Positions 4,378-15,927 of a stretch of DNA of 16,542 bases are shown here, piece by piece. The stretch is from a virus. Under the pieces are notes generated by a model that searched no databases, was not told the origin of the DNA, and saw only the letters and a list, made by a program, of their open reading frames with translations. The number at the start of each line of letters is the position of its first letter. The first letter of the stretch is position 1. Location of the stretch: the UHGV virus genome UHGV-1597668; one strand, given 5' to 3'. Position numbers and translations under genes: made by a program.

Positions 4378-5166
4378 ATGCTGGAAAAAGACTACCAGTT
4401 ATCCGCATATAAAAAATTGGCCGCTGCCGGTGGGATGAAAACACCTGGTGCCATAACATCGGCACGAAACAGTGCTAACACGGCAAAACAGCTTGCAGAA
4501 GAATTGACCGGATTAATTTTGGATACAATTGTCTATCCCGACACTATTACCAGCTATGTTTCAACGATCAGAACAACCACAGCCGGCTTAACGAACATTG
4601 GAGAACTGGCAACTAAGCACGCGGACCTGTTGGCTGGTTATGCAGATCTGTCAATGCTGCTTCAACTCGATATTGGTTGGGATGTTTACTGCCGTGCTAA
4701 TGAGCGAGAAGTTTCAGAACTGCCAATCTCTATTGCCATTGGTGATGTGACTATTACTAAATCGCTTGAGGACGCTGTAAACGCGCTTAATACATCAAGT
4801 TTAGTCGCTGCTATGGGGGAGATTAACCAGACCCTTAACACTGGCTCTGAAAGCTCGTCAGGTACTGGTTCAGGCGGCGGCACTGCCATTCCCCCACCAG
4901 CACTAACAGAAAAGCAAATTGAAGCTCTGAAAGTAGCAACTGAACAGTTTGGGGGAGTTTTCAACCAAACAACAGCGCCCACAGTTGCATTGCAACAGCA
5001 GTATGAACGGGCGAAGGAAAGCGCCAGCATAGCCATAACTGCTTATGGCCATGCTATTGGTACCGCGCTTGCGGAAGCATCAGCAAATAAGACCAGCACA
5101 GCCAGCGCAGTCGCCGCTTTGGTTCCTGATTCTGTTCTTGATGAATTAAACAAAGCGGCACAGTAA
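4378..5166 (+). CDS. Hypothetical Ala/Thr/Ser-rich protein, 262 aa
   Basis: ATG at 4378 with AGGAG Shine-Dalgarno 7 nt upstream, immediately after the PAAR-like gene's stop. Contains a Gly/Ser linker (SESSSGTGSGGGTAIPPP). No recognisable catalytic motif. Confidence 0.6.
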   Translation: MLEKDYQLSAYKKLAAAGGMKTPGAITSARNSANTAKQLAEELTGLILDTIVYPDTITSYVSTIRTTTAGLTNIGELATKHADLLAGYADLSMLLQLDIGWDVYCRANEREVSELPISIAIGDVTITKSLEDAVNALNTSSLVAAMGEINQTLNTGSESSSGTGSGGGTAIPPPALTEKQIEALKVATEQFGGVFNQTTAPTVALQQQYERAKESASIAITAYGHAIGTALAEASANKTSTASAVAALVPDSVLDELNKAAQ

Positions 5167-6240: not shown

Positions 6241-6347
6241 CTTATCCACAGCATAGATCCAATAAACAGATCCTAAAGAGAACCTAGGAAGATCCAAAGA
6301 AGATCCCGGATCGCTGTAAGCCGCGTCATTACTGGCCTGAAATGGGA
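6241..6347. other. oriR-like plasmid replication origin: DnaA box plus clustered GATC (Dam) sites
   Basis: Perfect DnaA box TTATCCACA (6241-6249). Six GATC sites within ~95 bp (6255, 6268, 6290, 6301, 6308, 6344), four of them in the heptamer context AGATCC. Immediately upstream of the iteron array. Confidence 0.6.
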
Positions 6348-6354
6348 TCAACAT

Positions 6355-6460
6355 TGACTATACGCGATTTTATGTTGACTGTGCACGATTTATTGTTGAC
6401 TGCACGCGATTTATTGTTGACTATACGCGACAGAAACATTGACTGTAAGCGATTTTAGAG
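6355..6460 (+). repeat. incC-like iteron array: five direct ~21-bp repeats, core TTGACTnnnnGCGATTT
   Basis: TTGACTATACGCGATTTTATG (6355), TTGACTGTGCACGATTTATTG (6376), TTGACTGCACGCGATTTATTG (6397), TTGACTATACGCGACAGAAAC (6418), TTGACTGTAAGCGATTTTAGA (6440), at regular 21-22 bp spacing. Confidence 0.8.
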
Positions 6461-6533
6461 TCTGAATATTCACAGCTGTTGATAACAGCCATCCAAATTG
6501 ACGTCAGGCCGCGCCACACATGGAGAAACTGCG

Positions 6534-7418
6534 ATGCCGGAAGAAAGTAAAGGCTTCCTTAGCGTTGAAGAAGTTGCAGGAAATACAGGAGAAATCCACA
6601 GCCTGAAGCCCAATAACAACAGCACTATACAACCCATCGCTTTGTTGCGCTTAGGTGTGTTTGTGCCAACCTTAAAATCTACCAATGTGGCGCTACGTCG
6701 CGGATCGTCAGTTACTACAAACACAACGAACGCAACCGAAGAACTATCAAGCCTCAAAATTGTTGAGCAGGAAGGCTATGAGGGAATTGAAATTCATGGT
6801 CCACGCCTGGATATGGATACTGATTTTAAGGTGTGGGTGGGCATAACCTCCGCGTTGTTTGACTACGCACCTGATGATGACGGCATAATCACCCTGCCAT
6901 TCTCCGAGTTTGCCGATCGATGCGGCTATCCACGTAAGCGCCTTTCAAAGGCGTTCCGTAAAAGTATTGATGACTCTCTGACACGCATTCAGCAGACAGT
7001 TGTCAAATTCCGCTTCCCGGCGGCAAAAGGTCATCTCAATAACATTAACGTCAACTTGTTGGCATATAGCAGCCTGAATACCGAGCTTGATGTTATCGAG
7101 ATCCAGCCGCAGAAACAGCTATCTGAACTTTACTATGTTGACTATAAGCGAATCCTGAAGCTGAAGATGCTGGATAAACTAGGGCGCAAAGAGACGGCCA
7201 AGGTACTGTATACATTCTTTGAGGCTCTACCCGCCAACCCGGCACCTGTCAGCATTGAGCGCCTTAGAGCGAGGCTTAATCTCAAATCATCCGTTAGCGT
7301 GCAAAATAGCGTTATCAGAAAAGCCATGAAAGATTTGGAAGCTATTGAATATCTTAAATTTTCAGAGATAAAAAACGGCAGGAAAATCGGCTTCCAGATC
7401 CATAAGCGCAATCCATAA
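6534..7418 (+). CDS. repA: Iteron-binding replication initiator RepA (P1 RepA family)
   Basis: Flanked by iteron arrays on both sides. Similarity to P1 RepA as recalled (QPIALLRLGVFVP, HGPRLDMDTDFKVWVG, YTFFEALPANPAPVSIERLRARL). Start set at ATG 6534 (GGAG Shine-Dalgarno) rather than TTG 6498. Confidence 0.85.
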   Translation: MPEESKGFLSVEEVAGNTGEIHSLKPNNNSTIQPIALLRLGVFVPTLKSTNVALRRGSSVTTNTTNATEELSSLKIVEQEGYEGIEIHGPRLDMDTDFKVWVGITSALFDYAPDDDGIITLPFSEFADRCGYPRKRLSKAFRKSIDDSLTRIQQTVVKFRFPAAKGHLNNINVNLLAYSSLNTELDVIEIQPQKQLSELYYVDYKRILKLKMLDKLGRKETAKVLYTFFEALPANPAPVSIERLRARLNLKSSVSVQNSVIRKAMKDLEAIEYLKFSEIKNGRKIGFQIHKRNP

Positions 7419-7420
7419 TA

Positions 7421-7675
7421 TTGACTATATGCGATAGCGAGAAGTTGACTATAGGCGACATTCGTTGACGCTGGTGGATTTTTGCTGGCGTCAATATTCT
7501 GCAAGTCGCTATTGAGATGGCTTTTAGGGGCATTTCATCGCGTATAGTCAACGTTTCTCCCGACAATATCTTACATAGTCGATCTTTGGTGGAGTTAAAT
7601 CGACTACAGTCAACTTTTGACTGTAGTCACATCGCGCATAGTCAACTATTCACATTAACCTTCGCGCATAGTCAA
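7421..7675. repeat. incA-like iteron array downstream of repA, iterons in both orientations
   Basis: Forward copies TTGACTATATGCGA (7421), TTGACTATAGGCGA (7445), TTGACTGTAGTCAC (7616). Reverse copies TCGCGTATAGTCAA (7538), CGACTACAGTCAA (7602), TCGCGCATAGTCAA (7632 and 7662). Same core as the incC iterons. Confidence 0.75.
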
Positions 7676-7710
7676 CATTTGCGCGGTTCTCATCAAGCAG
7701 TGGTATTGAT

Positions 7711-8520
7711 ATGCAAGAAGAGAAACAACACTACCTCTACGTTCTGGTGCCAGAGAACGGAGATACTTTTAAAATCGGCATTTCATGTGGTCCATTGGCA
7801 CGGTTTAAAGGGCTACAAGTGAGTCCCGATTTTGCGCTTTCACGGGTCTATCGTGGTACGCGTTTGGCAATGGTTAATCTTGAGCGGGCTTTACACGCAA
7901 CCTTTTTCCCCTGGAATGCGCCGTGGGAGAAAAGCGCCGGTGGCGGGCATACTGAATGGTTTACACGAGAGTGTCTTGATAAGGTTTTGGCTTATATCGA
8001 ATATCTAAATGATATGTGGGGAGGGATTCTCGAGCGCATTAAGTCGAATGATTTACTTCAGCGTCCAGTAGATGCTGCTTGCTCTTTCGAAAAAGAGCTG
8101 GATGTTACTTCTATCGTGACTTTCAAAGATGACGCAGGAATGAGGGACGTGGCTTATGTCTCCATATCTGGCTATGAACCGGACGCGATCCGCGCTCAAT
8201 GTGAATTGCTGAAAGCAATGTTTATGCTTCGGACTAAATATCCCTGGGATACAGGGCGGGTGTGCTTCCCTATGGAAGAGTTAACCGCCACCATTGATTC
8301 CCAGCTTTACCACGATAATCCAGAGAAGTTTTTTAGCCTTTTAGCCGATAATGGGCTTAACTGTGTGTCCGGGCTGGGGCGAAGTAGAATCCAACATGCC
8401 TCGCTCTTCGGTCCCTTCTTTTACGATCGACACGGGTACTTTGAGGCTGAACTTCCGGCGCTTACGCGTGCTATAGATACTATCGATTTCGAACGATTAT
8501 TCGCTGCTCTTAGCAAATAA
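7711..8520 (+). CDS. T5orf172 / GIY-YIG-superfamily-like domain protein with unknown C-terminal domain, 269 aa
   Basis: N-terminal ~95 aa match the T5orf172-type pattern: YLYVL....G..FKIGIS, conserved Arg (ARFKGLQ), LERALHATF, GHTEWF. C-terminal ~170 aa has no recognisable motif. Own Rho-independent terminator downstream. Confidence 0.65.
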   Translation: MQEEKQHYLYVLVPENGDTFKIGISCGPLARFKGLQVSPDFALSRVYRGTRLAMVNLERALHATFFPWNAPWEKSAGGGHTEWFTRECLDKVLAYIEYLNDMWGGILERIKSNDLLQRPVDAACSFEKELDVTSIVTFKDDAGMRDVAYVSISGYEPDAIRAQCELLKAMFMLRTKYPWDTGRVCFPMEELTATIDSQLYHDNPEKFFSLLADNGLNCVSGLGRSRIQHASLFGPFFYDRHGYFEAELPALTRAIDTIDFERLFAALSK

Positions 8521-8527
8521 CACTGAT

Positions 8528-8548
8528 GCCCCTGAACGGGGCTTTTTT
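8528..8548 (+). terminator. Rho-independent terminator
   Basis: GCCCC-TGAAC-GGGGC stem-loop followed by TTTTTT, directly after the 7711-8520 stop. Confidence 0.75.
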
Positions 8549-8688
8549 GTGCCCTCCTTGTAACTCTCAATCGTGCAAAATGAACCAAACATGCAGAGAA
8601 TGCTATGTACAAGCATCTACGCATACATTATTATTTTATGCAGCATTTTTAATTAAATTCAAAAATACAGCATAAAGGATGACTTTCG

Positions 8689-15345: not shown

Positions 15346-15927
15346 ATGGCACCTATACCTTATGGGGTTTACAGCCAGGCTGACGGTGTATCACTATTTC
15401 TGAAAGTTACTTTAACGAACTCTCAGTACCAGGTTACCGGATATATCAGCCAGGGGGCGGCAATGAACATGGCCCAGAATTGGGAAGCGCCGTTTACCGG
15501 TATGTCCATGGGGTCTGTTGCTGGTGCTTTCAGTGGTTTTGCGCAGGTTGGTACTGAAACAACGTCGGTGGCCCGTTGGAACAGCTTAATGGTTTGGGAG
15601 GGGGGAACACCGCCGACTTTCACGCTGCCAGTAACTTTCATCGCTTTGTTTGACCCATTCACGGAGGTTTCAGGAGCTATCGCCGCATTGTCAGCGATGA
15701 TTAGCCCGGAACTTAAAGATGCCAGTATTGGTGGTCGAATCCCGGAGCGTGTGACGCTAAACATTGGTCGCCGGATCAACATCATTGATGTCGCTATCCA
15801 GGACATAAGTTTCGATCTCGATGCACCCAGGGACAGCAATGGGCATTTCCTGAAAAACACCGTCAACCTCCAGTTGACCGGTTCTTCGATATATAACAGC
15901 TCCGATATTGTTCGGGCGTTCCAGTAA
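15346..15927 (+). CDS. Hypothetical structural-module protein, 193 aa
   Basis: ORF in the late-gene block. Weak Shine-Dalgarno at the annotated ATG; an AGGAGG lies just upstream of the preceding hairpin. Confidence 0.5.
   Translation: MAPIPYGVYSQADGVSLFLKVTLTNSQYQVTGYISQGAAMNMAQNWEAPFTGMSMGSVAGAFSGFAQVGTETTSVARWNSLMVWEGGTPPTFTLPVTFIALFDPFTEVSGAIAALSAMISPELKDASIGGRIPERVTLNIGRRINIIDVAIQDISFDLDAPRDSNGHFLKNTVNLQLTGSSIYNSSDIVRAFQ

Follow-up and report, generated by a model that had tools for sequence, protein, structure and literature searches.

A T5orf172-type nuclease gene at the right-hand edge of the p0111 replicon cassette of P1-like phage-plasmids

GIY-YIG homing enzymes of the I-TevI and Seg type carry their catalytic domain at the N-terminus and their DNA-binding domain at the C-terminus. 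In lytic phages, genes encoding nucleases with a T5orf172 domain (GIY-YIG superfamily) lie at the boundaries of genetic exchange (Barth, Dunham and Seed 2023, PMC10448857), and one such nuclease, Odn (Gp88) of ICP1, combines T5orf172 with a RepA_N-like domain, cuts the iterons of PLE, and selects for replicon swapping (PMC8263062). P1-like phage-plasmids, which frequently bring resistance and virulence genes into E. coli, Salmonella, and Shigella, occur with two replicon types, IncY and p0111; the elements SJ46, RCS47, and JL22 have been typed as p0111 in the literature. In this study, we analyzed a stretch of 16,542 nucleotides from the UHGV virus genome UHGV-1597668 (hereafter the window, to which all coordinates without a locus name refer), in which a gene at 7711-8520 on the plus strand, predicted to encode a T5orf172-type nuclease, closes a p0111-type replicon cassette. 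The p0111 cassette with its nuclease gene and the co-replacement of the gene are already known elements, the latter having been noted in passing in the JL22 paper as 'unknown gene gp57'; in the literature library searched, we found no paper that links T5orf172 or GIY-YIG to P1-like elements or that gives a function for the gene. New are the exact boundaries of the cassette, the 1:1 linkage, the deep synteny, the orphan and possibly winged-helix targeting domain, the domain order reversed relative to the studied T5orf172 homing genes, and a signature of relaxed selection and recurrent decay.

The window belongs to a P1-like phage-plasmid and, over repA, the nuclease gene, and parA, is 98.7-99.6% identical to phi456, SJ46, RCS47, JL22, and several records named 'P1'; SJ46, RCS47, and JL22 thus represent the same element, with no difference. 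Comparison with the P1 reference (NC_005856, locus L001; IncY) indicated that positions 6337-8586 constitute, to judge from the sequence, a p0111-type replicon cassette composed of iterons, a Rep3-type repA, further iterons, the nuclease gene, and a terminator. The p0111 assignment follows from the Rep3_C and Rep3_N domains, the 12 iterons, and the 99% identity to SJ46, RCS47, and JL22. This cassette replaces the incC iterons, repA, incA, and a 171-bp spacer of the P1 IncY replicon, and the remaining backbone is about 99% P1. In P1, the same genome slot, between the copy-control iterons and the par promoter, is occupied by that noncoding spacer (L001 8827-8997), which, as a preliminary description of the window had stated, contains no open reading frame (ORF); the par promoter and parA that follow are 99-100% identical to those of the window. 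A decayed copy of the nuclease gene in P1 was ruled out, as neither tblastn nor blastn at permissive settings detected a remnant in NC_005856.

The boundaries of the exchanged segment could be located, and the nuclease gene, as the final gene of the cassette, adjoins the abrupt right-hand one. On the left, blastn and a three-way alignment placed the junction with P1 at approximately 6336, within P1 oriR, with divergence beginning at the start of the iterons. On the right (8587-8688, plus strand), P1 homology resumes at 8587, at a distance of 67 bp from the nuclease stop codon; the -35 box of the P1 par promoter (Ppar, 8606-8634) follows 19 bp later, and the parA leader comes after the promoter. 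The flank to the right of the cassette matches P1 at 99-100% immediately and over some 4 kb, whereas on the left the 300 bp nearest the cassette are 91% identical and the DNA farther out about 99%. The gene itself, an ATG-initiated ORF of 269 codons on the plus strand, is a real coding gene under purifying selection and agrees with the 810-bp gene of the preliminary description. Its GC content of 46-48% is similar to that of the flanks, and a foreign base composition was therefore rejected.

We addressed the distribution of the nuclease gene by searching the PLSDB plasmids. The repA-nuclease block matched 404 plasmids; in 391, the match covered at least 80% of the block. In tblastn searches, the nuclease was found in 401 records, all at 90% identity or more, and RepA in 398 records at 80% identity or more, after which there is a gap to the ordinary RepFIB family below 60%; none of these ordinary RepFIB-family records carries the nuclease gene. 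Therefore, the gene is linked to the p0111 RepA at a ratio of about 1:1 and occurs nowhere else in PLSDB. Among 5.8 billion clustered proteins, the sole diverged full-length relative was P0004 (44% identity), which is encoded on a 95.7-kb contig (Logan ERR2144811; locus L003) in the identical slot, with the order Rep3, nuclease, ParA, ParB. This contig represents an unsampled P1-like lineage with about 71% DNA identity to all PLSDB p0111 elements, and no PLSDB relative of it is closer than 84% in RepA. A scan of one genome per species added one further nuclease locus, 97% identical. The gene is absent from IncY P1 and present in p0111 elements on backbones that are about 99% identical. The gene had at first been regarded as an insertion into a conserved slot of the P1 backbone. 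This reading was abandoned, because the whole 6337-8586 module differs from P1 and the gene is merely its final element; a sporadic insertion was likewise rejected, since the gene accompanies the p0111 RepA in essentially every replicon (398 versus 401 records) and retains its position in the distant L003 lineage. In addition, a 231-kb E. coli plasmid (NZ_AP027538.1) carries only the final 86 or so codons of the nuclease gene together with downstream DNA, and a 173-kb Edwardsiella ictaluri plasmid carries a frameshifted copy (P0050); fragments of the cassette therefore exist outside the typical P1-like elements of 90-100 kb.

The N-terminal part of the protein (amino acids [aa] 1-100; 7711-8010, plus strand) corresponds to a predicted T5orf172 nuclease domain with conserved Y10, K21-x-G23, R31, E58, H62, and E82. 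Pfam PF10544 (T5orf172) matched aa 8-92 with 27.6 bits (E 4.3e-6; profile positions 2-93 of 101), above its gathering cut-off of 20 bits, which bore out the earlier assignment of this domain; the Pfam families MUG113 and Tox-URI2 scored under their cut-offs, and NCBIfam gave no match for the protein. Among PHROGs, the full protein matched phrog_2876 ('unknown function') and the N-terminus phrog_681 ('endonuclease', E 4e-9). In an alignment with P0004 and three phage T5orf172 domains, L9, Y10, K21, G23, R31, E58, H62, G79, and E82 were invariant. By general motif knowledge, rather than by structure-based superposition, we take Y10, R31, and E82 to be the Tyr, the Arg, and the metal-binding Glu of the GIY-YIG motif; the Tyr of the second motif (YIG) is replaced by Phe, a position that is Phe, Ile, or Met across this T5orf172 group. 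The equivalent Glu is essential in ICP1 Odn (E180A) (PMC8263062). Lytic phages of Vibrio (211 records), Klebsiella, and Salmonella encode the T5orf172 proteins that are closest to the domain in sequence, at 34-36% identity. In one of these, Klebsiella phage vB_KpnM_FZ14 (L013, 1072-1773), the T5orf172 gene is located between two ORFs that are both annotated as DNA polymerase; an interrupted essential gene is a classic position for a homing endonuclease. Structure matches in BFVD, which covered the N-terminus only, were to proteins with T5orf172 and CapR homology, including ICP1 proteins; the structural neighbors of this domain are T5orf172/CapR-homology proteins of the homing type and GIY-YIG nucleases.

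The remainder of the protein (aa 101-269; 8011-8520, plus strand) is an orphan domain for which an alpha/beta structure is predicted, its winged-helix-like core comprising helices at 188-214 and a hairpin at 234-247. As had been noted from the sequence, these approximately 170 aa contain no recognisable motif, with no match in Pfam, NCBIfam, or PDB sequences, and the domain has no CxxC motif. When 1.84 billion representative proteins were searched exhaustively with a profile, only P0004 and fragments of the same gene were recovered, and two word-index searches, the species-representative genome scan, and PDB sequence searches added none. Derivation of the domain from the element's own RepA or from P1 RepA was rejected, as hhalign was negative for both. 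In the AlphaFold model, the local predicted confidence (pLDDT) was about 50-60 in the N-terminal domain and 75-90 for residues 130-215 and 240-269. The best, although weak, fold matches of the winged-helix-like part of this medium-confidence model were the winged-helix domains of iteron initiators; Foldseek against PDB returned no significant match, and the same Rep proteins recurred among the weak ones. The C-terminal part is therefore a putative targeting (DNA-binding) domain, probably a winged helix; this assignment, with its possible Rep-like character, is offered as a lead and not as a result.

The evolutionary characteristics of the gene differ from those of its neighbors. Between the window and the distant lineage L003, RepA is 84% identical, ParA 89%, and the capsid and sheath proteins 80-82%, whereas the nuclease is 44% identical as a whole, with 63% in the N-terminal and 33% in the C-terminal domain. 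The iterons, in contrast, are conserved between the two lineages, and the combination of conserved iterons with a fast-diverging C-terminal domain argues against that domain reading the iterons of its own element. Among nine alleles of the p0111 group with similar synonymous divergence, the ratio of nonsynonymous to synonymous changes (dN/dS) was 0.29 for the nuclease, compared with 0.03 for repA, 0 for parA, and 0.07 for parB, so that purifying selection on the nuclease is about ten times more relaxed than on the neighboring genes. The ORF is intact in most copies; however, at least 10 different nonsense or frameshift alleles, independent of one another, were found on full-size plasmids, counting only internal stops or frameshifted tails. 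They include Q36* in L009 and a frameshift in L007, both of which were checked, S112* in 22 contigs (verified in L016), and frameshifts close to codons 162, 171, 178, 180, and 183. Further frameshifts lie close to codons 59, 60, and 68, and two of these three were each present on about 15 contigs of 95 kb. Sequencing error may account for some of the frameshifts in long-read assemblies, but Q36* and S112* are substitutions. A 177-aa C-terminal fragment of the nuclease is annotated on 139 contigs. The 168-aa cluster P0003, which was considered as a further truncation, proved to be a contig-start artefact and was left out of the count. Because null alleles arose recurrently, we concluded that the plasmid prophage can be maintained without the nuclease gene.

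In view of the intact catalytic core, the fast-changing orphan domain, the position at the edge, the dispensability, and the repeated loss, we propose tentatively, at a probability of about 0.45, that the gene encodes a free-standing T5orf172 endonuclease of selfish, homing or competitive type that rides the edge of the cassette and is neither a replication gene nor part of a recognised defence system. The protein would be a two-domain enzyme, with an N-terminal catalytic T5orf172/GIY-YIG domain and a lineage-specific C-terminal targeting domain. When a p0111-type element encounters a related P1-type genome without the cassette, the enzyme would cut the cassette-less P1-type DNA at a site read by the C-terminal domain, and either repair from the nuclease-bearing element or out-competition by it may favor the spread of the bordering cassette. 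The many independent null alleles fit the pattern of gain, fixation, and decay that is expected of homing endonuclease genes.

The T5orf172 homing genes of ICP1 and other lytic phages (PMC10448857) are the closest models for this proposal. Their catalytic domain has the same invariant residues, they are the nearest relatives of the N-terminal domain in both sequence and structure, and they are likewise positioned at the edge of exchanged DNA. They differ in that their T5orf172 domain is C-terminal, behind Zn-finger CapR, DUF723, or DUF4397 repeats, whereas that of the window nuclease is N-terminal and has an orphan partner; in addition, their hosts are lytic phages, whereas homing in the window would take place in a temperate plasmid prophage. 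The domain order is the same as in I-TevI and the Seg enzymes of T4, to which, however, the window nuclease has no sequence similarity and an unrelated C-terminal domain.

Several observations weigh against a homing-type or competitive nuclease. No putative cleavage target site of the nuclease was identified, and an IncY element could be converted only if about 2.2 kb of nonhomologous DNA were co-converted with it. The N-terminal Zn-finger (CapR/DUF723) binding domains of the studied T5orf172 homing genes are absent from the protein. The PLSDB searches with the repA-nuclease block, the nuclease, and RepA found no 'empty' p0111 cassette without the nuclease gene, and absence of the gene always coincides with a different cassette, so that the polymorphism exists only as one cassette versus another. 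The AlphaFold model of the whole protein is of medium confidence (pLDDT 61.8), and the C-terminal part modelled alone reached a pLDDT of only 43.7, giving no usable model. Finally, an accessory gene for defence or attack that is exposed to fluctuating selection could leave the same signature of fast evolution, relaxed constraint, and frequent loss.

A rival explanation is a replicon-directed nuclease resembling Odn, in which a Rep-type winged helix would read the iterons or origin of a competing replicon, for example IncY P1, and the nuclease domain would destroy that replicon, thereby acting as a built-in incompatibility weapon. ICP1 Odn (PMC8263062) provides the precedent, since it also joins T5orf172 to a targeting domain and is also linked to iteron replicons and module swapping, and the weak fold resemblance of the window targeting domain to Rep winged helices points in the same direction. 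IncY P1 has the same par system and is therefore partition-incompatible with a p0111 element. We nevertheless regard this explanation as unlikely, since sequence homology to a Rep binding domain was searched for against the element's own RepA and P1 RepA and was not found; the binding domain of Odn, in contrast, is detectably similar to the RepA_N domain of PLE. Odn is also encoded by the attacking phage rather than within a replicon, and its domain order is opposite to that of the window nuclease. A related reading, an 'armed replicon' whose nuclease would recognise the origin or iterons of rival P1-type replicons (IncY or other cassettes) with the same partition system through a Rep-like winged-helix domain and cut them, seems similarly improbable to us. 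We give little credence, too, to a nuclease for anti-phage defence or exclusion, which the host would gain from the plasmid prophage through lysogenic conversion and which would resemble known GIY-YIG/T5orf172 defence nucleases. The evolutionary signature suits a selfish or competitive nuclease at least as well as the defence, anti-defence, or exclusion role suggested in the preliminary description. No PADLOC-DB 2.0 family matched at E <= 1, and inactivation is recurrent and frequent. Among the regions in which P1-like elements vary, the gene falls in none but the repA region (PMC9603915). It is also never found apart from the p0111 RepA and, unlike mobile defence genes, has no relatives in other contexts among the 1.84 billion representatives.

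Three features would also be compatible with a domesticated accessory of the replicon: the nuclease gene is strictly linked to repA and the iterons in both divergent lineages, it is probably co-transcribed with repA, as the stretch separating them showed no terminator or promoter, and the fold hints at a Rep-like winged helix. Such an accessory would modulate replication or expression of its own cassette by binding, for example, the downstream iterons or RepA, much as domesticated T5orf172 relatives of the CapR type act as repressors. This appears very unlikely, however, given that null alleles often occur on full-length plasmids that seem stable, that the nuclease is so much more diverged than RepA and the iterons, and that the catalytic residues, which a pure DNA-binding regulator does not need, have been kept. 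The null alleles and the relaxed constraint would suit a functionless relic, namely a passenger that was fixed by its linkage to repA and is drifting toward loss; yet dN/dS is well under 1, and the gene has kept its full length and its catalytic residues over a divergence that would leave neutral sequence unrecognisable, which makes such a relic hardly probable.

The other parts of the cassette and its left flank provide the setting of the nuclease gene. The origin part common with P1 oriR (6242-6336, plus strand), immediately to the left of the cassette, comprises a DnaA box, TTATCCACA, at 6242-6250 and a GATC-rich stretch, as seen in the three-way alignment of the window, P1, and L003. This part is shared by IncY (P1, L001 7400-7506), p0111, and L003, and the differences are confined to the iterons, repA, and the control iterons; thus, the unit of exchange is a specificity module and not the whole origin. 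Twelve matches to the iteron GTTGACTATACGCGA with at most 3 mismatches were found, all within 6353-7676, against a chance expectation of 0.36: repA is preceded by five direct copies, contains one, and is followed by two direct and four inverted copies. The five origin iterons (6353-6452, plus strand), which resemble GTTGACTATACGCGA and are spaced by 21-22 bp, are the counterpart of P1 incC. They are followed by repA (6534-7418, plus strand), which is predicted from Pfam Rep3_C and Rep3_N and from annotated homologues to encode a 294-aa initiator of the Rep3/RepFIB family, p0111 type, 42% identical to P1 RepA. The iteron-like site within the repA coding sequence (7137-7151), GTTGACTATAAGCGA, has 1 mismatch. 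The downstream array (7420-7676), conserved in L003, would be the functional counterpart of incA and contains direct iterons at 7420-7434 and 7444-7458 and inverted iterons at 7538-7552, 7600-7614, 7632-7646, and 7662-7676, the last of which ends 34 bp upstream of the nuclease ATG. The preliminary description was thus right in placing an iteron array directly upstream of the gene, but the array is not P1 incA and belongs to the p0111 cassette. Between the direct and inverted iterons, at 7465-7497, lies the sequence TTGACGCTGGTGGATTTT, every position of which is conserved in L003. The window version gives rise to an inverted repeat of 7 bp (TTGACGC...GCGTCAA), the second arm of which is not kept in L003, and the sequence may be a degenerate iteron or a site for a host factor.

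The cassette is closed by a predicted intrinsic terminator (8528-8549, plus strand), in which the hairpin at 8528-8542 (GCCCC-TGAAC-GGGGC) is followed by a T run; the calculated RNA fold of -11.9 kcal/mol (z = -2.8) agrees with the earlier claim that the gene has its own terminator. No sigma-70 promoter was found on the plus strand between repA and the nuclease ATG at a level of 9 of 12 matches, no terminator was found between the two genes, and no Rfam family matched the spacer at E <= 1 as a structured RNA. Since neither a terminator nor a convincing promoter separates repA from the nuclease gene, we infer that transcription from the autoregulated repA promoter probably reads through the iteron array and thereby expresses the nuclease gene.

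Annotation of the gene and the replicon is inconsistent among records. The usual annotation of the nuclease gene is 'GIY-YIG nuclease family protein', and it is 'hypothetical' in many records; in the phi456 record (OR339795.1), it is annotated as 'terminase small subunit', evidently a misannotation. In the 'phage P1' records MH445380, MH445381, and MH422554, the gene is unannotated and the cassette is actually p0111, not IncY. MOB-suite, as given in PLSDB, calls the replicon IncHI1B or IncFIB,IncHI1B (L004, L006-L011), whereas PlasmidFinder and the literature use p0111, and these differing names are a trap for surveys. Outside the cassette, the flanks are 96-100% identical to P1 except for dips at 4775-5075 (85.7%, in upfB) and 15486-15786 (87.3%, in pmgG), which are probably small recombination patches. 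In dmt (minus strand), about 275 bp of the 5' part (2402-2676) could not be aligned to P1, whose equivalent is about 170 bp, and this is a variable N-terminal segment of Dmt; the Dmt ORF comprises 789 aa from a GTG in the window versus 754 aa in P1, and the RCS47 dmt is much longer (3288 bp).

Were the gene merely a decaying passenger, these results would still provide a useful correction of its annotation as 'terminase small subunit' or 'hypothetical'. If, on the other hand, the nuclease spreads the cassette or removes rival P1 prophages, it would explain the exchange of replicon modules on a near-identical phage backbone, would carry the role of T5orf172 nucleases at genetic-exchange boundaries beyond lytic phages and into plasmid prophages, and would make the orphan C-terminal domain a new DNA-targeting module. 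If the replicon were indeed armed against its rivals, nuclease warfare would drive the replacement of replicon cassettes, in a mirror image of ICP1 Odn versus PLE. The nuclease gene is thus a candidate for nuclease-driven replicon exchange in medically relevant phage-plasmids.
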